A DNA stretch of 63,685 bases, filler included, from Collodictyon triciliatum (taxonomy: Eukaryota), in the NCBI GenBank assembly GCA_043381765.1. It is 13 parts of 13 records of this genome, joined end to end, with 100 filler letters (N's around TTAATTAATTAA, not from the genome) between each part and the next. Parts side by side here need not be neighbours in the genome. Positions count along the whole stretch, not along the records: positions 25,774 to 30,819 come from JBHJMP010005533.1; 12 more parts are not named here. The stretch is one strand, 5' to 3'. Under the pieces are notes generated by a model. The model saw only the letters and a program-made list of their open reading frames with translations, was not told the origin of the DNA and made no database searches. Both the position numbers and the translations under genes were made by a program. Below, one piece after another: positions 5,060 through 61,664 of this stretch. The first letter of the stretch is position 1; every line of letters begins with the position of its first letter.

Positions 5060-5159
5060 NNNNNNNNNNNNNNNNNNNNNNNNNNNNNNNNNNNNNNNNN
5101 NNNTTAATTAATTAANNNNNNNNNNNNNNNNNNNNNNNNNNNNNNNNNNNNNNNNNNNN
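5060..5159. other. Artificial 100-nt contig linker N..TTAATTAATTAA..N (recurs at 10216, 15370, 20524, 25674, 30820, 35968, 40997, 46140, 51282, 56426, 61565)
   Basis: Identical six-frame-stop linker embedded in Ns every ~5.1 kb. Confidence 0.98.
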
Positions 5160-5428
5160 CGCTACTCTGACCGCAAGTGAAGAGAGATGTGGGAATGTGT
5201 CGTGCGATATCTCCCGCAACATATCCAACCCCTGCTACCCACGCAACCAATCAACCAGTTGGGACGCCCTCCTGACCAGCTTGCTATCACTGATTTCTTT
5301 CCAGTGCTAGCCTCTCCACGGTAGTGTCTTCTCCTACTCGCGTTTGCTCTCACCCATGCGCACCTATCTCGCCCCTTTGTATGGCATAACCTTGCTGCAC
5401 TTTGAATCGAATAAAGACAAGAAAAAAA
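5160..5428 (+). mobile_element. 3' end/UTR of a non-LTR retrotransposon (same family as 27791-28325)
   Basis: Closely matches 28065-28325; ends TTTGAATCGAATAAAG plus an A-rich tail. Confidence 0.8.
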
Positions 5429-10215: not shown

Positions 10216-10315
10216 NNNNNNNNNNNNNNNNNNNNNNNNNNNNNNNNNNNNNNNNNNNNTTAATTAATTAANNNNNNNNNNNNNNNNNNNNNNNNNNNNN
10301 NNNNNNNNNNNNNNN

Positions 10316-13300: not shown

Positions 13301-15369
13301 CTAATATGCATGTATCTAGTTCTGCTCAATGTGTTGATTGCTTCCAGAAGGCAGCTGCTATCAGAAAGGAGACTAAGACAATCATGTCAATGAAAGACAC
13401 CCATCAGATTGACAATATTATCCGCCTCATGAAGGACAAGAAAGAGCATGAAGCCGCCATTCAGCTTTACAAAACAGCTGCTCTTAGACATGGTGAAAAG
13501 TCATCCTATGAAAACTGGGACTGCTGGGTGGCTTGTGAGACTGCGCACCAACACTGCAAAGAGAACAAGCTGTATGAAAGTGGCGTCGCATTCTGGGCTG
13601 AGATGAGAGACAGATTCGCAGATAAACTCGGATGGATTCACCCCAGAACATTAAATTCATGCGAATACTTGTCCGTCCATTCAAATGGAATCAGAATCAA
13701 CAAAGAGCCTGTTGAGTTTACGAGAGTCAAGGAATTCATCTGTGAAACTCTTGATGATGCAAAACTGGATGAGGAATGGAATCGTGAGCAAATCATTGCG
13801 CCATTATTCAGAATTGTCTACATGTCAAAGACTGATGAAAGCAAATCAAAGGCTGCATCTGATGCAATCACACTTTTGAATTTCATGAATATTTCTTTCG
13901 GTGGAATGGATTTATCAAACATCAAAATTCCGCATGCAAATCTCAGTAACTCAATCCTTGAAGGTGCAAACTTCTCGGGTGCCAACTTGGATGGTGTTGA
14001 CTTCACGAATTCGATGCTTGGTGACTGTGTTTTTGATAATGCAAAAATGAATAGTGTGAAATTCGGAATTCCTTATGATAAATTAGAAGGTCATACATAT
14101 TCTGTCTATAGTGTTTGCGCTATTCAAGGACCGAATGGTGAAAAGTGGCTGACTTCTGGAAGTCATGATAAAACAATACGTGTTTGGGATGTAGCCACAG
14201 GAAACCAAATTAAAACACTAGAAGGTCATACAGATGCTATCAATAGTGTTTGCAATATTCAAGGACCGAATGGTGAAAACTGGTTGGCTTCTGGAAGTCG
14301 GGATAAAACAATACGTGTTTGGGATGTAGCCACAGGAAGCCAAATCAATATATTGGAAGGTCATACAGAAGGTGTCAATAGTGTTTGCAGTATTCAAGGG
14401 CCGAATGGTGAAAAGTGGCTGGCTTCTGTAAGTCGTGATAAAACAATACGTATTTGGGATGTAGCCACAGGAAACCAAATCAAAACATTAGAAGGTCATA
14501 CAAGAGAAGTTGACAGTGTTTGCAGTATTCAAGGACCGAATGGTGAAATGTGGTTGGCTTCTGGAAGTCAAGATAAAACAATACGCATTTGGGATGTAGC
14601 CTCAGGAAACCAAATCAAAACATCAAAAGGTCATACAAGCAATGTCAACAGCGTTTGCAGTATTCAAGGACCGAATGGTGAAAAGTGGCTGGCTTCTGGA
14701 AGTTTTGATAAAACAATTCGTATTTGGGATGTGGCCAAAGGAAACCAAATCAAAACATTAGAAGGTCATACAAGTTATGTCAATAGTGTTTGCAGCATTC
14801 AAGGACCGAATGGTGAAAATTGGCTGGCTTCTGGAAGTGTGGATAAAACAATACGTATTTGGGATGTAGCCTCAGGAAACCAAATCAAAACATTGGAAGG
14901 ACATACAAGCGATGTCAATTGTGTTTGCAGTATTCAAGGACCGAATGGAGAAAATTGGCTGGCTTCTGGAAGTTGGGATAAAACAATACGTATTTGGGAT
15001 GTAGCCACTGGAAATCAAATCAAAACATTGGAAGGTCATACTGAGACTGTCAAAAGTGTTTGCAGTATCCAAGGACCGAATGGTGAAAAGTGGTTGGCTT
15101 CTGGAAGTTTTGATAAAACAATACGTATTTGGGATATAGTCACAGGAAACCAAACACACAGTCTGCAAAAACTAGAAGTGACCTACACCCAAGGAAAATA
15201 CCTCGTCAAGAAAGAAAAGCCAGACGAAGTCATCGCAGTATTCAACAGAACAAGTGATGCGATGAACATGATTGACACCAACAGAATCCAAGATGCAAGG
15301 ACAGTCCAGATTATCGGCCCAAGAAAGCTGCAAGGTGGAAACATCCAAATCAAAAATGTCACGGGATTG
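10316..15369 (+). CDS. NLR-like/STAND protein fragment: post-NTPase helical region (NPHP3/TEP1-like), TPRs, pentapeptide repeats, 8 WD40 repeats; truncated at both ends
   Basis: GHPLYLRIILDEVRVFGVYEKL (G.PLYL motif after NACHT-type NTPases); TPR exons (LGAKHASVAST, LGENHPNVVAC); ANLSNSILEGANFSGANLDGVDF; LEGHT..WLASGS.DKTIRIWD x8. Confidence 0.82.
14083..15153 (+). repeat. 8 x 135-bp near-identical WD40 repeats
   Basis: 45-aa period with near-identical DNA between units. Confidence 0.95.
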
Positions 15370-15621
15370 NNNNNNNNNNNNNNNNNNNNNNNNNNNNNNN
15401 NNNNNNNNNNNNNTTAATTAATTAANNNNNNNNNNNNNNNNNNNNNNNNNNNNNNNNNNNNNNNNNNNNTCTTCTCTTCTCTTCTCTTCTCTTCTCTTCT
15501 CTTCTCTTCTCTTCTCTTCTCTTCTCTTCTCTTCTCTTCTCTTCTCTTCTCTTCTCTTCTCTTCTCTCTCTGATGAATCACAACAACGAAAAATATGACG
15601 TATGCTTTCTCTTGCTCGTTA

Positions 15622-17088: not shown

Positions 17089-19967
17089 TTAGTCACCGAA
17101 GGAAACGACATTGTCGCCGATGGTTTTGGCCAGAGCACTAGTTAGATACGGCTGGCGGCCAAGGCGAGCAAGCAGCTCCTGGGGGATTCTGGACGATGCA
17201 AACTCTGCCATCAAAATGCGAGCGTCGGCTTGTGTCTCCTTGTCGAGGTCTTCCGCTTCACGCAGAATCCATAGCAAATATGATACAGGTAACAACAGAT
17301 TGCAGGAGTCTGTCAACCCATCGCACCCCTCTGCACCCTTTTCTAGCGCACCTATCAAGTCTCCACACAGAAGAACTTCCATACTGAATGATGGTGAACA
17401 AACTCTGTAATTATTATTGTTATTGTTAATATTATATTTATCTATTTTTTGTTTTTGGATGAGCGTAAATGAAGAGAAAATATAAAGAAAGGAAAAAGAC
17501 GCGTTCCATATAGCAATTCTTCATTCTTATCTTCTTTGAGAGACATCGTCACGCGTTTAAACGTGATTATTTCGGATGTATTATGTGAATTGGAAAGTAG
17601 AAAGGCAAAACTTTAGGTGTTCACATACTCATCAATTCTAACCTGTTCCATTCAAGTGCGTTTGGTATTTTGAAGGTGCGGATTACACTCAGCTCTAAAT
17701 CATGTTGTGTATGGGAGGTTTCGCGATTATATGGTGTATCTGACCAGAATGAGTGTGCGCGCTGACTTGCATCTTTTTTGGCCAAGCAGAGACTATGGCG
17801 CAGGTATATCTTAACCAGAAATCGACGGAAGTACCAAAGACTCTCGTGGCTGGGATAGCGCTGAATTAAATCTGAGTTATACATGAACTCCTGTGCAAGA
17901 ATATGGGCATAATCGAAACCTAATATATTATGATTGTTAATGGTAAAATAAAAATGAGGAAAAAAAAGAAGGATGTTTGGCATTCAATTGAAAGGAGTGC
18001 AAGGTTGTTTTTTTTTCTTTTTCTTTATCTATCAAAACAAAGATAAAAAATAGTTAAAACAGTTAGTCACCATCGATGAGGCTAGACATCTTTTCAAAAA
18101 TTTTGAATCTGTAATGAAAGGCTGAATGGTCAGACACATTTTTGTTTGTCCATTCTGTGATGTTGTTCAGCTCTGTAACCAACTATATGAATTTGTTTTG
18201 TATTTAAAATGTCTGTCTTTGTAATAGTTGAGGAGGAAAGCAAAATAACACTATTATAATAAAAGATGGAAGTTAAGATATTGTGCCTGAAGACAGAGAA
18301 TCATAATCGCAATTAGTTCAATATATCTATATATGTAGATAAAAAAAAGGTGTATGGGGCACTCAGTCGTGTAGAGCTTAAATCGATGATATGTTGCTGT
18401 TTTTTTTTTCTTTAAAAATGAAAAAAAAATTATGTGAAACCCATTCACGCGAGTTCGAAATGTCCATGGTAAACAGGCGGTGAGTCCACGCGTAATAATT
18501 CCTTGGGTATGCAACGGCCACTCGGGTACAAACACTCATTTCATGGTTCAATACATCTTCCGACACCGAGGGATGATTCTTAATCAACCACTTTCTGCGT
18601 TTGGCAATNNNNNNNNNNNNNNNNNNNNNNNNNNNNNNNNNNNNNNNNNNNNNNNNNNNNNNNNNNNNNNNNNNNNNNNNNNNNNNNNNNNNNNNNNNNN
18701 NNNNNNNNNNNNNNNNNNNNNNNNNNNNNNNNNNNNNNNNNNNNNNNNNNNNNNNNNNNNNNNNNNNNNNNNNNNNNNNNNNNNNNNNNNNNNNNNNNNN
18801 NNNNNNNNNNNNNNNNNNNNNNNNNNNNNNNNNNNNNNNNNNNNNNNNNNNNNNNNNNNNNNNNNNNNNNNNNNNNNNNNNNNNNNNNNNNNNNNNNNNN
18901 NNNNNNNNNNNNNNNNNNNNNNNNNNNNNNNNNNNNNNNNNNNNNNNNNNNNNNNNNNNNNNNNNNNNNNNNNNNNNNNNNNNNNNNNNNNNNNNNNNNN
19001 NNNNNNNNNNNNNNNNNNNNNNNNNNNNNNNNNNNNNNNNNNNNNNNNNNNNNNNNNNNNNNNNNNNNNNNNNNNNNNNNNNNNNNNNNNNNNNNNNNNN
19101 NNNNNNNNNNNNNNNNNNNNNNNNNNNNNNNNNNNNNNNNNNNNNNNNNNNNNNNNNNNNNNNNNNNNNNNNNNNNNNNNNNNNNNNNNNNNNNNNNNNN
19201 NNNNNNNNNNNNNNNNNNNNNNNNNNNNNNNNNNNNNNNNNNNNNNNNNNNNNNNNNNNNNNNNNNNNNNNNNNNNNTTTTTTTTTCTGGTTTATTTTTA
19301 TATGAATCTGATAAGTTGGGATATTAAAAGAAAATACAAAGATGTGTAGATAAAGATGGGCTGCGGCTTGGGAATTTATGGAAGTCCACAGATATAATTA
19401 CCAAACTTTGGATGTTTTTTCCATTTTGTGAGAAGCATAAAGGCGTCCTTGTACAATTTCGTCAAAATGGAATATGATATACAAAGCTTGTGTTCAAAAA
19501 GTTCAAAGTCGGCCTACAAGTTATTATTATTATTATTATATTTTAAAAAAGCCAAATAAAACTTAAATCCAAACACAATATATAAAGATCCAGACACTAA
19601 TAAAAAAAAATAGCAAGACGAATTGTCTGTTATCTTCATCAAAAGAGCATGTTATATAATGATAAAGGAGAGTATACATCATAGCCCTCTTCATCTTGCA
19701 AGTTCCTTCGGAATCCAATCTCGTTCCTATATGCAACACCAAAAACAAACAAAAACTGTGAATTATACGCACTTATTATGTTTCATATATCAGAGTAGTA
19801 TATCTAAATAAAGACTGTATGATTCTCCTTGCTTGCGCTGGGGTATTCTTGTGCAGAGTGTATATACATAACACCAAAGAAAAGGCCTACACATGTGGAT
19901 CAAGAGCAAAGATCTCGTCGAGCACGTCTAACGGAGCCCCGTCCCTGCGCTTGAAGTAGCGCTGCAT
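17089..19967 (-). CDS. PTAR1: Protein prenyltransferase alpha-subunit repeat protein (PTAR1-like), multi-exon, spans a gap
   Basis: PPTA motifs YPRNYYAWTHR, SDHSAFHYR, YPSHESLWYFRRF; N-terminal LDEIFALDPHV. Confidence 0.72.
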
Positions 19968-20758
19968 GCCCTTCCTGCGACTTTTTTTTTTTTTGTTGTT
20001 GAAATTAATGATAATAATGAAAATAATAATAATAAAGAAGAAAAAGAAAAAGAAAAAGAAAAAGAAAAAGAAGAAGAAAAAGAAAAAGAAAAAGAACAAT
20101 AAGAGCACGAACAAGAATAACAAGAACAAGAACGAAAAAATAGTTAAATGATGTAAATGACCCAGCGAGAAAGGGACATGGATTTCTGATTGAGTTGGCT
20201 TCTGTGAATTCATTTTTTTTTTTTATTTATTTATTTAATTCTTTCGATAGTGAGAGGGGATAGGGAGAGAGTTTGCTTGCCTCCACTGCTTTCGAGCCCT
20301 GGGAAGAAAGAGAAAGAAAAAGAAAAAGAAAACGAGAGAGACGGAAAGTGAAAGAGAAAGAAAAAACTTGGTGATTCCCATGGACACATCACGACTCTTT
20401 TTTCTTTTTTTTTCCTTCCGTTTTTTCTTTGAAGTCGAGCCCACACACAGACTAACAGCCGACGCCATCCTACGAGAAGAGGACCTTGACATTGTGGTCG
20501 CGACCATCATCGACAAGCTCAAANNNNNNNNNNNNNNNNNNNNNNNNNNNNNNNNNNNNNNNNNNNNTTAATTAATTAANNNNNNNNNNNNNNNNNNNNN
20601 NNNNNNNNNNNNNNNNNNNNNNNGGCGGCGTTTCTCATCGAAATATTGAAAAATCCTTTGTTCTTTCCTCCTGTCTGATTATTCGCCATTCCCTGTGTTT
20701 TTTTTTAAAAAAAAAGAAAAAGAAAAAAAAAACACCTTTCTTTCTTCTCTTTTTTTTT

Positions 20759-25673: not shown

Positions 25674-26276
25674 NNNNNNNNNNNNNNNNNNNNNNNNNNN
25701 NNNNNNNNNNNNNNNNNTTAATTAATTAANNNNNNNNNNNNNNNNNNNNNNNNNNNNNNNNNNNNNNNNNNNNGACATCGGCCCTGCCACAACTGACAGC
25801 AATACTCTCTTCTATTCTCCTCTCCCAACGTTCTGTTGCCTTCTGCTCGCACTCACACTAGACCCACACAGCCCCGGGAGCACGACAAGGCCGACTTCCA
25901 GCCTACCTTCCTCCCCAAGCTGCGCTGGGCTGTGCCGCAATACACCCTCATTCAGTCAGTCGCTTCCCCCATCTGGTCGGCCCTTGCCCAGCCCAGTTGA
26001 GTGGCCGCAAACGCCTCCTTAGCTTTCTCCTCCTCATCCAACTCTTATATTTTGTTCTGGTCGTCTGCGATCTCCCTGATTTCTTTCATTTTTTTTATTT
26101 TTTTTATTTTTTTTATTTTTGTCATAAAAACGAGCTGTAGTTCAGCATTTCCCAAAATTCGTGGTGGGTGGGTTCAAGTCGTACTTCAGGTTGCGTCGCA
26201 TAAAAATGATGAAGTTAAGTAAGCAGCCGCGAGGGGAGAAGTTCTTCGCACTGTCATTCGTTTGTATGTTGTTTAA

Positions 26277-26393
26277 TAGAAGGGGTATGCCATCTTTCGA
26301 TTGGTAAACCTGGTGCGCTAGTATCCAAGGTCTCACCACTTTTTTTACAAAGATTGTGTAGTGTTGAATGCTGCCAGGAAAGACCCGACAGCC
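26277..26393 (-). ncRNA. Putative Fanzor omegaRNA scaffold / element right end, copy 1
   Basis: Immediately 3' of the Fanzor stop; aligns with 52783-52900; hairpins; similarity stops at CCCTTCTA. Confidence 0.75.
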
Positions 26394-26400
26394 TGATTTT

Positions 26401-27780
26401 TTAAAGAGAGGTGTATTTGTTTTTTTGGGTTGGGGTTAAAAGAACTTTGTTGAGTATATTTATGGCGCTGTTAAAATCCCTTGTCAAGAATACACTTTGT
26501 TTGCTTTCTAAGCGATTGCATTCTTGACATATGAGACATATATACAACTTTTTTGAATTTTCTTTCAGTGTTACATATTCCAGTTCTTTTTCGCAGTTGT
26601 AGCACATCTTGGAGGTCTAAATTCATCTACATTAACTGTTTCAAAACGTTTGGATAGTATTTTTCGTAATCCTCTTCCAATTGTCGCCATAAAATGGTTC
26701 ATTGGAGATTTTCTGCTCCAGTCTCCATGCGCCAGTACAACATCCTTGCCAAATGTCTTTTCGATTCGGTCCATAAGCAACTGTTCGCTTCTTTTTGTAT
26801 TAACATATTGTCTCCATATCATTTTCCGAAAAGTTACGTGTTCATAAAATCTGGGTAATTCTGTCCGGTATCTTGATTTCATAGATACATATTTTCGAAG
26901 TTGTTCATAATCGACCGTGCATGAATTATTTTTACTTAGTTCTGTCTCTAAATCGATTAAAGATACTCTTAATGTCTCAAACTGATAATTCTCTTCAAAA
27001 GTAATGTGACCAAAAGAAACAGCATTTTGTAAATCTGTTGCCATGCATATCCCTGAAGGATTGTACTTTTCTACTTTCTCGCGCAAGAGTATTTTGTGAT
27101 TTTTAAGAGATTTGCTATCATGTCTTATTTGGTGTGCCGTGTAACGTAATTTCTTACCTGCCTCATCCACCATGCAAACCATATTAAACTTCCCTGCGTC
27201 CACTCCAACTATTTTTTTTTTATTTTTTATTTTTTGTCGCTAATAAAGATAACTGCTCTTAGGAAAGTTCATCTATATGAACATATTCTTGGGTCTTTTG
27301 ATTATATTTGAATTTTGAATTTGAAATACCTTTCTTTTGAAAGAATAATGACACCGCCAAACCGCCTGTTTGTATCATGTATTTAAAAGTGTAGTCTCTT
27401 TGATGATAGACCCTCTTCTTCATTTCAAAGAAATCATTCCATAGTTTCTATTTGCATCCGGATATATTCTTCATTAATAATGTTTCTCAGATAATACTAA
27501 TAGATCTATCAAACATGCAGTATCTAGAGTAATATGACATGATGTATTGGTAGTTCTAATAAGGATTGGTGGAAACAGTTTGGTTCCAATGTCCTCAAAA
27601 ATGCGATTCATGTTAATCAGACATGATATGCACTTATTTTGATTAACTTTGGTGTCATATTCGATACCATTTACAATATCGCTGGGAATGATACGATGCA
27701 AATGCGTTCTAGCCCATTCCTTATGTTGTCCCGGCATTTCGAGTTTCGTGAAGATGTCTTTTTTTAACTTATGTAACTCT
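26401..27780 (-). pseudogene. Fanzor1 (TnpB-like RuvC nuclease), copy 1; frameshifted, 5' part replaced by a LINE
   Basis: VGVDAGK (RuvC-I), GDWS, VDEFR (RuvC-II, rearranged Glu), CYNC..CQEC zinc finger, TRDFNSAINI (RuvC-III). Confidence 0.88.
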
Positions 27781-27790
27781 TGCTCAAAAA

Positions 27791-28325
27791 GTGACAGAGT
27801 CTCACAAGATGCTCTCTGAGCTTGATTATGCTCCCAACCGACTCAGCGCGTCTGACATCCCGTTTGGCCCACAATACCAAATGACCCACAACTCTAGAAT
27901 ACTCTGGACAGTCACAAGGGGACATATGCTGTGGTCCTTATGGAGTGTACGCGCATTCTCTCGCTCCAATGATTCACCCGAACGAGAAATCAATGTTTAC
28001 AGGCTTGAGAGCCTCGTGCAACTCAGCTTCCTGAACAACCTGCTGAAACACGCCCGCATTCTTCGCTACTCTGACCGCAAGCGGAGAGATGTGGGAATGT
28101 GTCGTGCGATATCTCCCACAGCATATCCAACCCCCGCTACCCACGCAGCCAATCAACCAGTTTGGACGCCCACCTGACCAGCTCGCTATCACTGACTTCT
28201 TTCCGGTGCTACCCTCTCCACAATAGTGTCTTCTCTTACTCGCGTTTGCTCTTTACCATGCGCACCTATCTCGCTCCTTTGTATGGCATAACCTCGCTGC
28301 ACTTTGAATCGAATAAAGGAAAAAA
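27791..28325 (+). mobile_element. 5'-truncated L1/Tx1-like LINE (ORF2 C-terminus plus 3' UTR) abutting Fanzor copy 1
   Basis: RGHMLWSLWSVR (W..W..R ORF2 C-terminal motif); 3' UTR shared with 5160-5428; AATAAAGGAAAAAA tail. Confidence 0.75.
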
Positions 28326-28328
28326 TCT

Positions 28329-28510
28329 GATTGTGTCCTTTGTCTCTCACTGCGCTTGTTTCTCAGCAATATGAACTTTTTTTTTCGAATATTCAAGTCT
28401 TTTTTTATTGTTCCTCTGAGCCCTGTCTCTCTGTGTGATCACCACATTTATTCACGTTGTGAGTTGTAGAATACATCGGTCTTTGGGAATTTTGGCTCAC
28501 GCGAACAATG
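28329..28510 (+). repeat. Interspersed repeat B, partial copy
   Basis: Aligns to 56090-56270 (TGTGTCCTTT..GCTTGTTTCTCAGCA..TTATTGTTCCTCT..GTGTGATCACCA..CGAACAAT). Confidence 0.8.
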
Positions 28511-28699
28511 AAACATACAAAGAAACAAAGATATGGCCCAATTGTATGCTGTTTATTCGTTGATGTGGTATTGGAGTTCGTTGCTGGGGCGCTAACCTAT
28601 GTTTGCATATATGGTCAATGACTTAGGATGTTGAGAGTGGGATGCCTGCCAGTAAGATAGATATGTATATGAACGATTTTAGTATCCAGTCCGCCTCGT

Positions 28700-29160
28700 G
28701 CGGTGTTGTCAGAGTTTTGTTTGCTCGTTGATTTTCATCCACAGCACAGCCCATCTCGTGGACTGTTTGAGAGTTGAATTTCTCATATCCTCATCATTAT
28801 GCAACGGGGTGTGATGTTCGTCGAGGTAACGGGCAGTTTGGATAGAACTTACGAGGGTATCGCTCGCCTGGCAGTGCAGTGGTCGGCTGAGCAGATCGGC
28901 AGGTGAGAGCGTCTTCTTGCCTGGGTATCGATAGCACATGTTGCGCTTGGGTCAGCAGATCGAAAATTGTCTTTGAATTTATGGCTTTGTCGAAAATTGA
29001 ATCTTTTCCTTATTTGAAAAAATAACCTAATATGGGGAAGGGTCGTATAAGTCGATCGACTGCAAGTCGCCAAATATCTGTGCCTCCTGAGACCAACACG
29101 GCAGCAGCGATATTCCTCGAGGAGCAAACAGAATCTGACAAGAAGAATCAAGTATCAATC
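28700..29160 (-). mobile_element. Degenerate Ty3/Gypsy-like pol remnant (RNase H region)
   Basis: VGLRRHRYL and YRYPGKKTLSPADLLSR resemble the Y.PGK.N..AD.LSR RNase H end; frameshifted. Confidence 0.5.
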
Positions 29161-30631
29161 AGTGTGGCATATCAGAGTCTATGAAAGGTTCATGGTTATA
29201 CAGCTTTGAAATAATAGAATATATTTCCCAGAATAGGAAATGGTGTTCATCCGCTCGAACAGGTCTTCCCGTCCGTAGTACCTTCTGTGTTGACAGGCGT
29301 TGTTAGGACAAAAAGTGTTTCATGACACAAAGACACAGAGCTTAGTAGCGCAAGTTGAACTGTAGTCAAAAAATCTTCTCATAGTGATGAAAATGACTTA
29401 CATGCTTTGGTTAAATTCCAGGCAATGAGGAGTATGTGCGTGTTAGTTGTACAGACTCGCATTGAAAAGAGTGAATATTGGTGATAAATGGTCGCCTTAC
29501 TCTCTAAAATAGCAACAAATTAGCTCTTTAGATGAAATAAGTCAAGGAAAAAGATTTCTGGTAACTGATTTGAGATATAAAATTTGCTCCTATTATTAGA
29601 AATTACTGCCTAGGTTCCAGAATTAAATGGTGTTAATTTTATTGTTAATTTCAAAGAAAGAAAAGATAGACTTGAGTGATGCATGATGATAGTATTATTC
29701 ATAATTATTATCTTTCAAAAAAGATTTACAATCTAGTATCGCAGCGCCCGGCAACAATAAGCAAAATCCATCAATCAAAAGTTATAAAGAAAATACGTAG
29801 CTTTGTAGCTTGAGGTTGTAACGATGATTGATAAAAGAGAATAAATTACGTTCTTTATTATCAACCAGAAATTGAGAAACACAGCTATTTATCTATCTAA
29901 ATCCATATTTACACACGAGATAAATAGTAAACCACTTACATACTTTTAAATGGATTTTCTGGGTTAATAATTAGCGAATACATTGCAATTAAACATACAT
30001 TTAATTATAAATTAATGGCAATAATAACACTGGCACTAATATACTTACTCTCTTTGATACCAAGTCAGTTATGAATAATTTTTTTATGAATGAGTTTCGA
30101 TGTATAATAATTAAAAACGTTGATAAATATTACATCCTTTTGAATATCATAAGATTAGTAACCGCGAAACAAACAGTTTTGATGAATCAGTATTAAAAAA
30201 AAAAAGAAATGGCTTCTTACATTATTCTGTTAATTTTAAAATGGAATAGGTGATGAGGAAGTAGGGGTCTTATTGGTAATAAATAACGTTTTTCTTTTGG
30301 TCGGACATGAATGAATCCTACGGTTATCTAAAAAAGAATAAGAAACAAACATGAGAACGTCTTTTTTTGGAAGATTACTAAAATATTAGGTTTCATCCAT
30401 TTTTTTTTATCAAACTGAAAAGAGTAGAACTCGATATCCTAGTATTGAATGAGGAAATAAAAAGGAGATAACGAGGTACCTTGGATGCCTGGGGCCAAAA
30501 TAACACATTTTTAATATTTGTTTCAGTTTCATCTTCCGAAAAACATATTTCTTCTCTTGCAAATCATGCATTTAAGAATGAGACTTACATCCTTTTTATA
30601 TTTACATTATGAAAGCATGTTGGTTTGTATT

Positions 30632-30689
30632 AAGGTTCCAACTCTAATAGAGTCGAATAAAGGAAAAAAAAAAGGTTCCAACTCTAATA
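30632..30689 (+). mobile_element. Ultra-short LINE-tail insertion (30650-30671) with 18-bp TSD
   Basis: AAGGTTCCAACTCTAATA [GAGTCGAATAAAGG + A-run] AAGGTTCCAACTCTAATA. Confidence 0.8.
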
Positions 30690-30919
30690 CATATTCTTCA
30701 ATAACATAGTCTCAAACTTCAATAAAAATAAAAATAAAAATAAAAATAAAAATAAAAATAAAAATAAAAATAAAAATAAAAATAAAAATAAAAATAAAAA
30801 TAAAAATAAAAATAAAAATNNNNNNNNNNNNNNNNNNNNNNNNNNNNNNNNNNNNNNNNNNNNTTAATTAATTAANNNNNNNNNNNNNNNNNNNNNNNNN
30901 NNNNNNNNNNNNNNNNNNN

Positions 30920-31178: not shown

Positions 31179-34100
31179 GAAAAGAAGCACAGCCAGCAGA
31201 TATTGGATGCGATGGTTAAAGGTAACTTGGGAATACTCAATTTTGGTTAAATGGAATACTCTTCAAATATGGGGGGGTTTTTTTTTGTGGAGGATCATTT
31301 TCTGTTTACTTTTCACCCTCCTTTTGAATCTTTGCCCCAGTAGATGTGTTTGATTTTGAAGAAAGAGATACGAATATCCGCGCTCAATCACATAAACAAA
31401 ATATGGTGAGAAATAACATTATTTAATTCCTCCAATTATGTTATGAGTTATAAATGTCATTTGCCAATTGTTTTTTTACCTGTACATTTTTGGAGTAACA
31501 TAAATTTTATCTAAGAGAGAACAATGCTTTTCCAAGACCTCATCACCAATTAAAAAAGCAAAAACGTATGAATTTCAACTACACACCATATTAATATAAT
31601 TTTCTTCTTTAAAAAAGGTATCAGATGTGAAATTCATGTTTTTTTTAAGCTCAGCCTCCACAATATCCATCAATTACCCATAGAGAAACCGTTTCGTTGG
31701 AATCGGACTATAGAGCTAAATCACCTCGAGATAATCTGGACGATGAATATCCATTTCAAGTAGACAAATCTGATGTTTCCTCATGGAGAGGTATCACTCC
31801 AGCCAGAAAAACCTGGAGACCGAAGGCACCACTTAGAATCATTCGTGGTATCCGATATCCTGAAGCAGACTTAGAACCACCAGCTTCCACAACAGAATCT
31901 GTATCCCCACCCTCAGAAAAAGTATCACCCACCATTCAACTAAAATAATTTCTGAAATTTACTTGAACTTTCAAACCTTACTGATATTTGATTAATATAT
32001 CTGGTGAAAATAGCATGATGCCATTTCGTATTTTCTACTTTTACAGGATACGTCCAAAGTCTTATCACATAAATGTCCATTATTTTAGGTCAGTTCTCCA
32101 AAAAAGAATACCGGTGTTGTTGAAATAGAATTATCGAGTGATGAAGAGGAAACTAAGTTTCAGAAAAGAGACCACTCTCCTTTGAGGATCATGGCGGATC
32201 TCGGTTCGTTCTCCTCTGCAAGCAAAATGACTAATGAAGAAAAAGATTCTAATTCATTTTGCGAGGGTGTACCTTCTATAATGGAGTTGTTTTCGGTATC
32301 TGGTAATCACAGAAAATATACCACAGTTCTCTCTCTAAATCTGATTCAAAATTATAGAGATTTAGCTGAGCTATATTTTGAAGTGAAAGATATATTTTTA
32401 TGCCATTCACTTTCTCTCTTTCTCTCTTAAGTGTGAACAAGTTATGAGAGAATTATTGCAAATTGAAAAACATAAAAAAAAGTTATTCTTTATTTTTTGT
32501 TTTTTCTAAAAAAAATTATGAATTTTTCATTTGGAGCAGGTCAAAACTTGAGTGAAATTGACTTGGTGTTTGTACGCACATCGACATTCACAGAATCTCG
32601 CGCACACAACAAATCACTTAGATGTCAAATAATGGTTTTTATTTATTCAATCCAGTCTTTTCTTCATTTGTAATATGATGATTTTACAACCTCATTTCAA
32701 GAATTTTTTTAATCAATCATGTCTCCATTATTATTAGTTATTTGCTATTTTCAACTTTCCTTTTTTTTTTTTTTGAAATTTTAATACGGCAGGAAAATAA
32801 AATGTATATTAATACAAAACAAGAAATTGACATAAATTATTGCTTAATCAGACAAGTGGAGCAGGTAATCATACAAAGTAAAGTAATAAGTATACCATAT
32901 CACCTATATATAATTTTCTAGTTTACCCAGCAAATAATATGGTTATCTATTTGAATTGAATATATATATTTGAGACACCTGAAAAACATACTATTGCTCA
33001 CTCATTCACATAATTAGGTAGTGGACAAAGGTGTATACACGTTACTTATTAAAGTACATGATGGTAATACCTTTTTTATAAAAAAATTACAGCATTCAAT
33101 TATACTACTATCTGTCATTCAGTATCACTAATCCTCTTTCCAAAATAAAAATAATGTATGCATCTATACGTTATAAAGACAACTTTTTTTTGTAAACCCT
33201 TTCATTTTTCTATTTTCCACTATGGAATTCAACCAGTTTAATTCATATTCTCGAAAATCTAGTAGAGTTCAGCCCGTACTTTAGCATAGGCTTACTGTCA
33301 TTGCAAAATATGAGGCAGCTAGGGAGTAAATTAGGCTTGATAAAGAAGGAAAAAGGACTTTCGTTTTATTGGAATCATTTAGAATTCAACAGGTCTGTGT
33401 TATCCTTAAGAAACGAATCGTTCATCGCATCAATTATATTCCAATTTATTTAATATTTTATATTATTTGTTTGCCTCATAATTCGTCTAACAACAAACAA
33501 AAACATATAAACAAACAGTAAACTGGATTTTTTAAAATACCTGCCCGAAGAATTATCTGAAGAAGTGTCTCGATGGTGATTATCAATATTNNNNNNNNNN
33601 NNNNNNNNNNNNNNNNNNNNNNNNNNNNNNNNNNNNNNNNNNNNNNNNNNNNNNNNNNNNNNNNNNNNNNNNNNNNNNNNNNNNNNNNNNNNNNNNNNNN
33701 NNNNNNNNNNNNNNNNNNNNNNNNNNNNNNNNNNNNNNNNNNNNNNNNNNNNNNNNNNNNNNNNNNNNNNNNNNNNNNNNNNNNNNNNNNNNNNNNNNNN
33801 NNNNNNNNNNNNNNNNNNNNNNNNNNNNNNNNNNNNNNNNNNNNNNNNNNNNNNNNNNNNNNNNNNNNNNNNNNNNNNNNNNNNNNNNNNNNNNNNNNNN
33901 NNNNNNNNNNNNNNNNNNNNNNNNNNNNNNNNNNNNNNNNNNNNNNNNNNNNNNNNNNNNNNNNNNNNNNNNNNNNNNNNNNNNNNNNNNNNNNNNNNNN
34001 NNNNNNNNNNNNNNNNNNNNNNNNNNNNNNNNNNNNNNNNNNNNNNNNNNNNNNNNNNNNNNNNNNNNNNNNNNNNNNNNNNNNNNNNNNNNNNNNNNNN

Positions 34101-35665
34101 NNNNNNNNNNNNNNNNNNNNNNNNNNNNNNNNNNNNNNNNNNNNNNNNNNNNNNNNNNNNNNNNNNNNNNNNNNNNNNNNNNNNNNNNNNNNNNNNNNNN
34201 NNNNNNNNNNNNNNNNNNNNNNNNNNNNNNNNNNNNNNNNNNNNNNNNNNNNNNNNNNNNNNNNNNNNNNNNNNNNNNNNNNNNNNNNNNNNNNNNNNNN
34301 NNNNNNNNNNNNNNNNNNNNNNNNNNNNNNNNNNNNNNNNNNNNNNNNNNNNNNNNNNNNNNNNNNNNNNNNNNNNNNNNNNNNNNNNNNNNNNNNNNNN
34401 NNNNNNNNNNNNNNNNNNNNNNNNNNNNNNNNNNNNNNNNNNNNNNNNNNNNNNNNNNNNNNNNNNNATATAATATTCATTCCAGTCTTCTATGCGTAAG
34501 TTCTAGAAATAACTTCCTCTTGTACATATACCACATAGCTGAGATACACTTTCCCTAGGTTAAATTATATGTCCTTTTCTCTTTTTATCAAACAAGGAAT
34601 CATTGGACACTAGCAGTTATATGCAACCCGTTCAAAATAAAACAAAATCTATACTCGGGCATTCTATACTTTGATTCCCTGGGATGGTATTAAAAAATCT
34701 AAGTTATTTGTATCGTGTAATCACTCTTGAGGGCTGTTTCTTTTTCTCTTATTTTTGATAGGGAAATCTTAAATACCCCTTCATGTTTAGCATACCCTAT
34801 CCTCTCCATATCCTCGACCTTTTCGGTTTACTAAAACAAATTTTTTATCGTATTAGCTACGAAATTTTTGATACAGTGTGTACTGCCTTGAAAAGGTATA
34901 GCTCAAACAGATTCTCATTTTTTTTCTCCCTTGGGTGCATCAAATGGCGCCTTTTCAAATGTTTGAATTAAACGTATCGAGAGGGAATCTTGAGATTATG
35001 AGGCAATTGCACGAAGCAAAATTGTTAATTTCATCTTTCTATTTCTTCTTTATTTTGTGGCTGACCATTACAAACTTTTGAAATCAGAACATCTCGACAA
35101 AATATGTATTCAAAAACGCTCTACCATCAATTATATATATATATATTTAAAACCCAACAACCAAAGGTTTCTCACAACACAAGAAGTCAACAGCACAAAA
35201 ACAGAGGCAGAGTTGGAATGTACCAAAGTGGCAGTAAGACTCTTGTTTTCTATGAGGGGACTCATTGACCCCTAGATTAGCTAAACCATCATCATTCATT
35301 TATATTTTATTGTAGTCAAGAGTTCAGCCCTTGGGATATGAGTGTGGGACGTACGTCATAATGTTCACGGAATGCATTTTAACGCGGCTGCCAACTATCA
35401 TGATGATTGTAAGTCTCTCGCTATATTTTCAGGGTACATCACAATTGCAATCCTTTTTTGTTTTATTTTGTGTTGATAGATATTAAAGCCCAGAAAGGGC
35501 ACGTGGTTCTTTTACACGACCCTGGGTATTGAATATTAAAAAGTTACTATTGTCTCCAAAATATTGCGTTATCCAAAGACAAGTTCCGGTGAGGCGGATT
35601 TCTTCAACCGATTTCGATTCAGCGATGAGTCGTTCTGTGACAAAGAACTACGTGGCCGTGTTAAG
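31179..35665 (+). CDS. Ulp1/SENP family (C48) SUMO protease, many small exons, spans a gap; ends approximate
   Basis: Catalytic motifs in order: NHWTLAVICNPF (~34598), LYFDSLG (~34663), VQPLGYECGTYVIMF (~35322). Confidence 0.78.
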
Positions 35666-36269
35666 GTAAGGCCGCAATATTTGAGATTTTGTGCCCAAAT
35701 GTCAAATGATACACTTAATAGGGGATGATTGCTTGGGAATACCGATTGTCTGAACTTCGTAGTTGTGTATCTGAGCAAAGTCAGTAACTGTAGCGATTGG
35801 TGTATGAAGAGTACATCTTTTCTAGTCTATATAATAAACTGAAATGCCTCATGAATAATGTATGTATGTATGTATGTATGTATGTATGTATGTATGTATG
35901 TATGTATGTATGTATGTATGTATGTATGTATGTATGTATGTATGTATGTATGTATGTATGTATGTATNNNNNNNNNNNNNNNNNNNNNNNNNNNNNNNNN
36001 NNNNNNNNNNNTTAATTAATTAANNNNNNNNNNNNNNNNNNNNNNNNNNNNNNNNNNNNNNNNNNNNTACATACATACATACATACATACATACATACAT
36101 ACATACATACATACATACATACATACATACATACATACATACATACATACATACATACATACATCAACAACAAAAAAAGAAAACAAAAGAAAACAAAAGA
36201 AAACAAAAGAAAACAAAAGAAAACACAGCAAAACCAAAAATAATGAAAGATAAAATAATAAAAAAAAAA

Positions 36270-40996: not shown

Positions 40997-41096
40997 NNNN
41001 NNNNNNNNNNNNNNNNNNNNNNNNNNNNNNNNNNNNNNNNTTAATTAATTAANNNNNNNNNNNNNNNNNNNNNNNNNNNNNNNNNNNNNNNNNNNN

Positions 41097-42476: not shown

Positions 42477-42979
42477 ACCTTTTATTGTGTGTAAAAAATA
42501 ATGAATAGGGTTTAAATGAATTTGCCCACACCAAGTTTGCTGACTATGTTATTTTGAAAAGATAAATACGATTTCTAGATGTCATAATATAAAAATAATG
42601 TAACCTTTGTCTCGGACATTGCTGTGACTTGGAAGTGGGTGCGGTCCTGTGTGGTATTTGGGGAGTGAATGTTAATAAAATATACTCTTTTCTTTTTAAT
42701 TGTGGTTCTAGATGGCCCTGCATGCTGAATTATTTAGAGCTGCCTGTTCATTTCAACTGAAGCTTGGCACAAACAGATTGTTGATTTGGGTTTGATAGCA
42801 CTCGTTTGCTAATATTATATGAAAACATGGAGAGCCTTTGTGATATACTATTCTTGCTTTGAGTTTTCGCGTATTAGCGATTACTTCCGACTGATTTGTG
42901 TGATAAACCAGAGGCTTAGCGAGCTAGTTGAATTTATACACAGAGGCAGCAATGTCAATCATAATTATGTTTATAAGTG

Positions 42980-54794: not shown

Positions 54795-55786
54795 GTGAAA
54801 GCCTTTGTTTTACTTTTTCCTTTTGAAAACTACCGATTTTTCAATTTTAATAAAAAAAAAATAATTAGTCAATTAGTCATTTAATTTAAAAAAATAACTG
54901 CACAAAATCGATTTATGTAAAATTTAGCATCTGCCGAGACTCTCAAATTATGCACATTTTGGCAAACAAACACACAAAGTTTTTTTTACAAGAGAATTGA
55001 GACGAAAGGATGAGAGCCGATTCGGCGGGTTCGAAAGGACGGCCGTATAGCCATTGCGGCTGAAAGTCAACATATCGGCCCCAAACAACATGATTACCGC
55101 CGCAAGTGTGGATAGTATGCTTTTTTGGAATACATATTTGGTGGAAGGTTTATTGGGTGGGTTCTGTCTGGGCCAAGACAAAGGCTTGTTTGTATTTTTT
55201 GAATTTTAATGATAGTACATACATCAATCAAAAATAAAATATAAATTGATTATAGGAATAGAATGAGATTATTAAGTATTTTTAATCTTATTAATATATA
55301 CTAATCATACTATTGTATCATTCAGGTTCTTTATTGGATTCATCAAATTTCCTGCTTTCGTCAATCCAGATTTAATTCGATGGTTGTCTGTGCAAAAAAC
55401 AGCTACATATGGTTTCACTTCTGTTGTATAAAAAGTGTTGTGCATTGAAAGGGATAAAACCAAGTTCGTACAACCTTTGTAATGAGGTTTATCCGTTTAC
55501 AGGCTGAATGAAACCGAAGAGAAAGGAAAGGAGAAAAAGAGAAAGAGAAAAAGAGCAAAAGAAACGGATGAATGAACCAGAGCAACTGATACTGAACACT
55601 ATATTCATACTGATCTTGTTGCGCGTGAGTCGATGGCTAGAGCCCGCAGCCTTAAACCCTTTCTTCAGTAGTCTCTTGCTCTCTCACTACCCATGGGTCG
55701 ATGGCTAGACCTCGATTTGTCTTTTTTCCCTTTATTATTATCATTATCATTATTATTTATTCGTTTCAAAGAGCTCGCTCTATCTC

Positions 55787-56270
55787 ATTAGTAGGTGGTT
55801 GTACTCACGGGTCGGTGGCAGCTGGCATCTTGGTCTTCGGTGTGTCTCTGTGTATAACCTGTGTTGCAAGGGATGTGGTAAAGTGACCTTTTCGCTCTTT
55901 GCGTTGGCTTTGTCGGCCTTCTCATTTTGCGTTCGGTCAGTAGGCATTCCACGGCGCAGGGCTGCGGCGTTGGTCTCGTCCTTCTCAGGATCCCTCTTTC
56001 CGATCGCTTTTTTGTTTTTTCTTCGGCTTCAGAATGTGGCGGGTTGGGAAGAAGGAAAGAATGCCAGTTAAATAATATTACTTTCTGGAGAATGTGTCCT
56101 TTTTTCTCTCTCAGTGTGCTTGTTTCTCAGCAGTAGACTTTTTCTTGTTTTTTGCGTGGGGGTTATTGTTCCTCTCAAGTCTCTCTTGGTGTGATCACCA
56201 AATTAATTCACAGCGCGTAGCTTGAATGGATCAGCATTGTAATTTTTTTTTTTTTTCACATACGAACAAT
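55787..56270 (+). repeat. Interspersed repeat B
   Basis: Matches 50700-51150 (inverted) and 28329-28510. Confidence 0.85.
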
Positions 56271-56536
56271 CCCACCAACAAACAAATAGTTCCAGTTTAT
56301 TAATATAACATTCCTTAACTCTAGGCTGAAAGGTAGGGAAAAGAAAGGAAAGAAAGTTAAAAAAAAAAAAAAAGAAGGAAAAAGAAAGGGAATTAAAAAA
56401 AAAAAAGGACGAAAGGAAACCTCTCNNNNNNNNNNNNNNNNNNNNNNNNNNNNNNNNNNNNNNNNNNNNTTAATTAATTAANNNNNNNNNNNNNNNNNNN
56501 NNNNNNNNNNNNNNNNNNNNNNNNNTGATTTGTCTG

Positions 56537-60237
<3,701 letters not shown>

Positions 60238-61564: not shown

Positions 61565-61664
61565 NNNNNNNNNNNNNNNNNNNNNNNNNNNNNNNNNNNN
61601 NNNNNNNNTTAATTAATTAANNNNNNNNNNNNNNNNNNNNNNNNNNNNNNNNNNNNNNNNNNNN

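Follow-up and report, generated by a model that had tools for sequence, protein, structure and literature searches.

The locus considered here raises a simple question: what is the short segment at 26277-26392 on the minus strand, which follows a broken gene and then ends abruptly? It might be the scaffold of a guide RNA, the DNA end of a transposon, a donor of guides to a protein encoded elsewhere, or the last part of a duplicated gene with nothing special about it. We think it probable that this segment, called the tail in what follows, is an omegaRNA-type scaffold and right end belonging to a decayed member of a multi-copy family of Fanzor1 elements, mobile elements that carry the eukaryotic, TnpB-like, RNA-guided nuclease of that name.

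The window and its pieces

The window, by which we mean the whole stretch of DNA that was analysed (63,685 nt), consists of contigs of ~5.05 kb each that have been concatenated, and is not one piece of a chromosome. The contigs are joined by 100-nt linkers (44 N, TTAATTAATTAA and 44 N) that recur with a period of ~5.1 kb:

Linkers 1 to 4: 5060-5159, 10216-10315, 15370-15469, 20524-20623
Linkers 5 to 8: 25674-25773, 30820-30919, 35968-36067, 40997-41096
Linkers 9 to 12: 46140-46239, 51282-51381, 56426-56525, 61565-61664

Since linkers lie between the contigs, distances across pieces and the order of features along the window are artificial. The two copies of the Fanzor1 element described below, copy 1 and copy 2, are found on the pieces 25774-30819 and 51382-56425 respectively and, these being separate contigs, their relative order has no meaning. 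Longer runs of N are present at 18609-19277 and 33591-34467.

The window has the look of eukaryotic DNA, with microsatellites and split genes (WD40, LRR, TM9SF, ATPase), and no tRNA or Rfam family was found in it. The closest named proteins to the TM9SF exon are from the green lineage (streptophyte, ~70%), and transcriptome proteins reach 72-82%. The repeats of the WD40 frame (13306-15417, plus strand, 703 aa) are tandem repeats at the DNA level too, with a period of ~135 nt and units 86-88% identical over 14078-15154. Another set of tandem repeats, at 42983-43836, has a period of ~45 nt and 77-87% identity and falls inside a frame (42971-43738, minus strand) that has a weak PHD-like Pfam match only. 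We also noticed an inverted repeat of ~400 nt (50778-51181 and 55753-56145, 80% identity), a dispersed repeat near contig ends. It was considered as a frame around copy 2 and rejected, as its halves are on two different contigs.

The gene upstream of the tail

Two damaged copies of the same gene can be recognised in the window, one of them next to an unrelated repeat:

26401..27778, minus strand: Fanzor1 pseudogene copy 1, matching residues ~179-616 of the metagenome protein P0001, 5'-truncated
27777..28318, no strand assigned: unrelated repeat that adjoins the truncated 5' end of copy 1
52864..54794, minus strand: Fanzor1 pseudogene copy 2, matching P0001 residues 1-642 in several frames

In copy 1, a 222-aa frame (26571-27239) is 65% identical to P0001, an intact protein of 648 aa. 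P0001 in turn matches solved Fanzor1 chains (GtFz1 at 2e-28, and also PpFz1 and SpuFz1) and has 243 relatives at E <=1e-5. A profile built from 42 proteins (A2) and compared with the PDB retrieved SpuFz1 (8gkh) at 6.9e-57, over positions 3-609 of 628, as well as the other Fanzor1 chains PpFz1 of Parasitella (9.8e-59) and GtFz1 (1.5e-47), and the 222-aa piece of copy 1 alone reached 8gkh at 3.7e-5. The RuvC D/E/D residues and those of the CxxC..CxxC zinc finger are invariant in the 42 relatives, and the motifs VGVDAG, VDEF, CYNC..CLICQEC and TRDFNSA can still be read in copy 1. A Pfam search gave sub-threshold matches to Cas12f1-like_TNB in pieces of the window (E 0.0027 and 0.16) and no match in P0001. 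Judged by these protein resemblances, which take in the WED/REC/RuvC/TNB core, the gene upstream of the tail is a Fanzor1.

Neither copy retains an open gene. Copy 1 is without its first ~178 codons, its frame is broken at least three times (near 27474/27447, near 27259/27239, at 26616), and it meets an early stop at 26401. The repeat that begins at 27777 gives the same loose-end consensus in four of four public sequence runs, and part of it (28064-28318) is 91.8% identical to 5160-5416. Copy 2 has an in-frame stop and a G in place of the RuvC-II glutamate. No intact Fanzor1 gene was seen in the window, both copies being pseudogenes and, to judge by their reading frames, both dead, with copy 1 a fossil. 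Beside the right end of copy 2, and convergent with it, lies a 321-aa frame (51563-52528, plus strand) for which Pfam returned nothing at E <=0.001.

A sharp right end shared by two copies

The existence of a second copy, which an earlier note on this DNA had asserted, was borne out by self-blastn, where a single long repeat joins 26272-27778 to 52776-54269 with 83.5% identity over 1525 nt. Both copies are on the minus strand (26272-27778 and 52776-54794) and are ~83% identical. Their likeness ends within a few bases of 26277 in copy 1 and 52781 in copy 2. Aligned globally, the two copies agree in 104 of 125 columns of the tail (26277-26400) and in 1156 of 1393 of the ORF part, so that tail and ORF are conserved to the same degree (83% each), while past 26277 the flank of copy 1 (26217-26276) agrees with that of copy 2 in just 22 of 69 columns (32%). 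The drop from 104/125 to 22/69 shows that the boundary is indeed sharp and that the flanks are truly unrelated. The different 3' flank described in the earlier note thus holds, as does its boundary, past which conservation was not seen: the two copies diverge there, and an independent contig stops at 26278. All the strings that it had quoted were also found on the minus strand where it had placed them.

The differences between the copies fall at the three codon positions as 27/27/23, 19/22/13 and 7/19/15. Such an even spread indicates that the copies have drifted neutrally since they split, and we read their differences, from this substitution pattern, as neutral decay and not as selected covariation.

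The tail itself is on the strand of the gene, directly 3' of the Fanzor1 frame and partly overlapping it, and extends up to the right end of the element. Its distance from the RuvC-III motif in the window is 203-205 nt. Four local stems can be drawn in it:

26277..26392, minus strand: structured 3' tail of copy 1 with four local stems, putative right end and omegaRNA scaffold
26370..26392, minus strand: stem 1, GCUGUCGGG/CCUGGCAGC, a 9-bp hairpin with a UCUUU loop
26333..26367, minus strand: stem 2, UCAACACU (26367-26360) with AGUGGUGA (26340-26333)
26308..26331, minus strand: stem 3, ACCU (26331-26328) with AGGU (26311-26308), extendable to AGACCU.GG/CC.AGGUUU
26290..26304, minus strand: terminal hairpin CC-A-AUC GAAA GAU-GG, 12-13 nt before the element end
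26259..26276, minus strand: insertion-site flank, unrelated to the flank of copy 2 and with no family read depth
52781..52899, minus strand: tail of copy 2, which folds better than that of copy 1

The tail of copy 1 finishes with CCCCUUCUA at 26285-26277, after which comes UUAAACAACAUACAAACG, and the AUC-GAAA-GAU core of the terminal hairpin occupies 26301-26292. Stem 1 lies within the reading frame in copy 2 and in P0001, where the first ~55 nt of the tail are coding. A search for the 23-nt string of stem 1, allowing three mismatches or fewer, returned 26370-26392 (exact) and 52877-52899 (two mismatches), with no match in any of 100 shuffles.

Copies of the family in public sequence runs

Public contigs were placed on the element at 80% likeness, using four runs (X1, X2, X3 and X8). 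X1 and X2 are freshwater metagenomes, which gave 5 and 11 contigs, some of them identical or nearly so; X3 and X8 are small single-organism runs of uncertain library type (RNA only guessed), which gave 268 and 233. With hundreds of contig pieces in X3 and X8, the Fanzor1 family is multi-copy. Since the type of library is uncertain, these contigs show DNA copies and not expression, and no run on record as RNA and carrying 26100-27900 was found among public runs. The best run carries at most 13% of the sampled words of the window.

None of the four runs has any depth of family contigs over 26130-26249, and depth increases from 26250 up. One contig fits 26278-26394 and continues with 32 unaligned letters, which makes it an independent right end, within 1-2 bases of the boundary drawn in the earlier note. 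Three further contigs (two from X8 and one from X3) join 26392-26402 to 26635-26641, having kept the tail but lost ~240 nt that encode the zinc finger, the RuvC-III motif and the last part of the ORF; the gap is filled with 4-8 letters in two of them and with 69 in the other. These contigs may be non-autonomous derivatives.

The same contigs tell which changes belong to copy 1 alone. At 26364, most have the C of copy 2, which restores a C-G pair in stem 2 (on the plus strand, T>G is read here in 6 X3 and 10 X8 contigs), and at 26615 an extra base, lost from copy 1, is present in 11 contigs of X3 and 6 of X8. From these readings, both lesions are private to copy 1. At the three tail positions listed, the tail of copy 2 is nearer to the family majority.

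Fold and covariation of the tail

The 24 pairs of the four stems proposed in the earlier note were scored on the alignment of the two copies. Twenty-one of them are invariant, one changes from C-G to U-G, two are broken and none has changed on both sides. The change is in stem 1, where the C-G of copy 1 stands against U-G in copy 2 just as the earlier note had reported; one of the broken pairs is an A.G mismatch in stem 2 of copy 1 (26364/26336), which that note had overlooked, and the other is in copy 2, whose GAAA hairpin has a C.A. Its claim that the substitutions preserve structure is therefore not sustained, as it comes down to one wobble change, two broken pairs and no compensatory change in 24, and the covariation that it had put forward as a check is absent from the two-copy comparison, although two neutrally drifting copies give such a count almost no power as a test. 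The structure obtained with RNAalifold has one compensatory change (C-G to U-A) in 27 pairs. Because the copies have drifted neutrally, their substitutions are uninformative for or against an RNA or selection.

Paired positions differ between the copies less often than unpaired ones (3/48 against 17/72, p 0.013). We rejected this as a sign of selection, given that an equal bias appears in 65 of 65 ORF control windows and is thus an artefact of stem choice.

The foldability of the tail is above the background. Among 71 windows along the element, each of 120 columns, the two tails have the lowest shared-fold energy (-25.0 kcal/mol); the 65 non-overlapping windows from the ORF have a mean of -10.7 (sd 3.7) and none goes below -16.65. 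Against shuffled sequences, the tail of copy 2 has a z of -2.63 (3 of 200 shuffles fold as well), whereas that of copy 1, with a minimum free energy of -30.2, has a z of -1.34 (17 of 200), which is not significant. The asymmetry between strands was rejected as a sign of RNA because the difference (-25.0 for sense and -23.0 for antisense) is too small, and with the two values nearly equal the fold cannot tell RNA from DNA. Rfam gave no match to the tail at its gathering score; at E <=10 it returned two matches that we took as chance, BsrC (E 3.2) and, on the other strand, MIR169_2 (E 0.77).

Giant-virus relatives and their tails

A profile scan of IMG/VR yielded 418 relatives, from which 80 loci (L002-L081) were kept, mostly from giant-virus bins and 38-47% identical to P0001. 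By protein sequence, the nearest relatives of the family, besides P0001, are these giant-virus Fanzor1s. A conserved tail is found in 76 of the 80 loci. It starts at the last ~20 codons and is conserved as far as a GGTGTA motif and no further, mostly 200-230 nt past RuvC-III (199 at the least, 280 at the most); of the four remaining loci, three run off their contig. In the viral hairpin P1, three of seven pairs change on both sides (30 cells), a score that none of 500 shuffles reached, and two pairs of P0, a helix of long range, become A-U and C-G in L002-L004. The covariation of P0 and P1 indicates that in the viral clade the 3' tail, which overlaps the end of the gene, is structured. Three loci (L033:3764-3962, L038:4274-4481 and L079:4265-4439) carry extra GC-rich hairpin insertions, in the P1 loop or before the terminal motif, around which the conserved blocks stay put, so the viral scaffold can accommodate inserted stem loops.

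The viral tails resemble those of copies 1 and 2 in belonging to the same protein clade, in overlapping the end of the ORF, in their sharp end and in their similar distance from RuvC-III, and, by eye, TTCAC, AAAAAGT, AGACC and ATTGAT occur in a common order. They differ in having P0, the covarying P1, a further hairpin and a terminus in GGTGTAAA, none of which is recognisable in the tail of copy 1 or copy 2. Searches in both directions agree with this difference. A covariance model of the 5' half of the viral tail (R1) has no match in either copy at E <=10, a model of the two tails of the window (R2) finds its own tails only and nothing in 81 loci (IMG/VR and JGI), and blastn of the two tails against the same 81 loci gave chance-level matches only. 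P0001 retrieved nothing from viral_contigs, where a 19-nt scaffold string also had no exact match, and a single locus, 21% identical, from metagenome_contigs.

Elsewhere in the window, at 58090-58159 (minus strand), the 17-nt string AAAGTAAGACCATCGTA exactly matches the core that is best conserved among the tails of giant-virus Fanzor1s. An upstream GTCTT could pair with the AAGAC of AAAGTAAGACCATCGTA, and model R1 scores this site at 16.2 bits (E 0.35); tblastn found no Fanzor-like frame near it. The site may be a relic of a second element of viral type, or chance.

Alternative explanations

Three other explanations of the tail have to be weighed against the evidence given above. A Helitron ends in a hairpin ~10-12 nt before a CTRR terminus, inserts 5' of a T, has TC at its 5' end and carries Rep/helicase. 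The tail could be a transposon DNA end and nothing else, a site for a transposase with no role as RNA, of which a Helitron-like 3' end would be one form. The GAAA hairpin is indeed 12-13 nt from the end, copy 2 terminates in CTAG and copy 1 in CTAT, each with a T after it, fold energy differs little between sense and antisense, and some Fanzors ride in Helitrons, as described in the sections of two papers that we draw on (PMC10530073, PMC10432273). We nevertheless find this explanation unlikely, and the Helitron form fits only in part: the hairpin has 3-5 bp only and is AU-rich, the fourth terminal base of copy 1 is a T and not a purine, one family contig ceases to match at 26278, ahead of the CTRR-like motif, neither a Rep/helicase frame nor a left end was found on either of the ~5-kb contigs, and the giant-virus relatives end otherwise. 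A DNA end is besides compatible with the scaffold reading, since the two coincide in TnpB/Fanzor elements. If instead there were no special element, and the tail were the coding end and 3' UTR of a duplicated segment, with incidental stems and a likeness due to shared ancestry, one would understand why tail and ORF are equally identical, why the first ~55 nt belong to the coding sequence of copy 2 and of P0001, why copy 1 has a z of only -1.34 and why none of 24 pairs covaries. This is quite unlikely in our judgement, given that the energy of the tail is the lowest of the 71 windows and ~3.9 sd below the ORF mean, that copy 2 reaches a z of -2.63, that a tail with covarying helices occupies this place in relatives and that the known biology of the family puts an omegaRNA there.

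A very unlikely explanation, as we see it, is that the dead copy 1 acts in trans, its tail being transcribed and guiding an intact Fanzor encoded elsewhere. It has a precedent in the ghost loci of Spizellomyces, which are active with SpuFz1 according to the part of the report used here (PMC10432273). The tail is whole though the gene is broken, public contigs drop ~240 nt yet keep the tail from 26392-26402 onward, and in X3 and X8 at least one of the lesion sites also occurs with its frame intact. Weighing on the other side are the decay of the tail, at the rate of the dead ORF (83%), the change by which copy 1 loses a pair in stem 2, the lack of any run on record as RNA that carries 26100-27900 and of any intact gene seen in the window.

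We return then to the scaffold reading. Its position, strand, boundary, foldability and family membership make the tail best read as a scaffold in a fossil copy, with the probability given at the outset. This is the part of the earlier omegaRNA interpretation that stood (site, strand, sharp end and foldability); its argument from substitutions fell, and so did its use of the variable flank as the mark of a guide, for any transposon insertion shows a variable flank and this is no mark of a guide by itself.

How the tail would work, and what it means

In working Fanzors, the region that corresponds to the tail is transcribed with the gene or after it and folds as the scaffold of an omegaRNA. The RNA runs past the right end, and 15-20 nt of the flanking DNA become the guide. 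Applied to copy 1, the four stems would be the scaffold and the sequence from 26276 downward the insertion-site flank, read as guide; by analogy, the tail would have been made as RNA and bound by the protein, with the flank acting as its guide. As the gene of copy 1 is 5'-truncated and frameshifted, its guide is at best a relic, which is less than the earlier note had made of it.

That Fanzors have a structured 3' RNA region, with the flank as guide, has been known since 2023. As a decayed member of a type of system already known, copy 1 is ordinary and adds little alone, and its clade may already be present in published tables of Fanzor loci. Its value is that of a pointer to a Fanzor1 family whose tail differs from that of its viral kin, the models failing to detect each other's tails. 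A full set of right ends could yield a scaffold model based on covariation for a new branch of Fanzor1, and could test whether dead copies donate guides. One may imagine a eukaryote, green-lineage by the look of the one host gene tested and with fragments of its element in freshwater metagenomes, that carries a high-copy Fanzor1 family with kin in giant viruses. The scaffold of this family would have been rebuilt, four local hairpins taking the place of the viral long-range helix and 3' domain, and its dead or internally deleted copies, having kept the tail, would be ghost donors for a few intact genes. We regard this reading as very doubtful; if true, the genome would have a large repertoire of native guides.

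Comparison with known Fanzor systems

The comparisons that follow are limited to what is stated in the sections of the published reports that we draw on. Fanzor omegaRNAs come from the 3' region that abuts the right end, sometimes overlapping the gene, and their 3' end is read from the flank as guide (PMC10432273, PMC10530073). In Fz1 scaffolds, one to several stem loops follow SL1 (PMC11423790).

One known system to compare is that of SpuFz1 from Spizellomyces punctatus (Saito et al. 2023, PMC10432273), also a Fanzor1, to which the family has a full-length profile match (8gkh). As described there, its element is multi-copy, of ~2.1 kb with one ORF, has a structured region between the gene and the right end, has many incomplete copies as well as copies reduced to the RNA region, and takes the guide from the flank. 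SpuFz1 differs in its 30-nt inverted repeats, none of which was found for copy 2, and in an omegaRNA of 88-90 nt determined by small-RNA sequencing (PMC10432273), whereas the RNA of the tail described here is a predicted one. The identity between the proteins is also low, detectable at the profile level only, and both copies in the window are dead.

ApmFNuc, in contrast, is a Fanzor2 within an IS607 element that has TnpA and inverted repeats (Jiang et al. 2023, PMC10530073), and no transposase was seen here. Its fRNA and those of other Fanzors in the same report share with the tail a conserved structured 3' region at the right end that reaches into the coding sequence, and the report describes copies of the RNA region standing alone in some genomes (PMC10530073).

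The layout of the tail resembles that of the omegaRNA of GtFz1 from Guillardia theta (Xu et al. 2024, PMC11423790). The stems of the tail are only predicted, and the likeness is one of stem-loop layout. The GtFz1 locus is without inverted repeats in the account of Saito et al. that we draw on (PMC10432273), and its RNA has SL1 and three stem loops before the 3' guide (PMC11423790), to which the four predicted stems of the tail would correspond.
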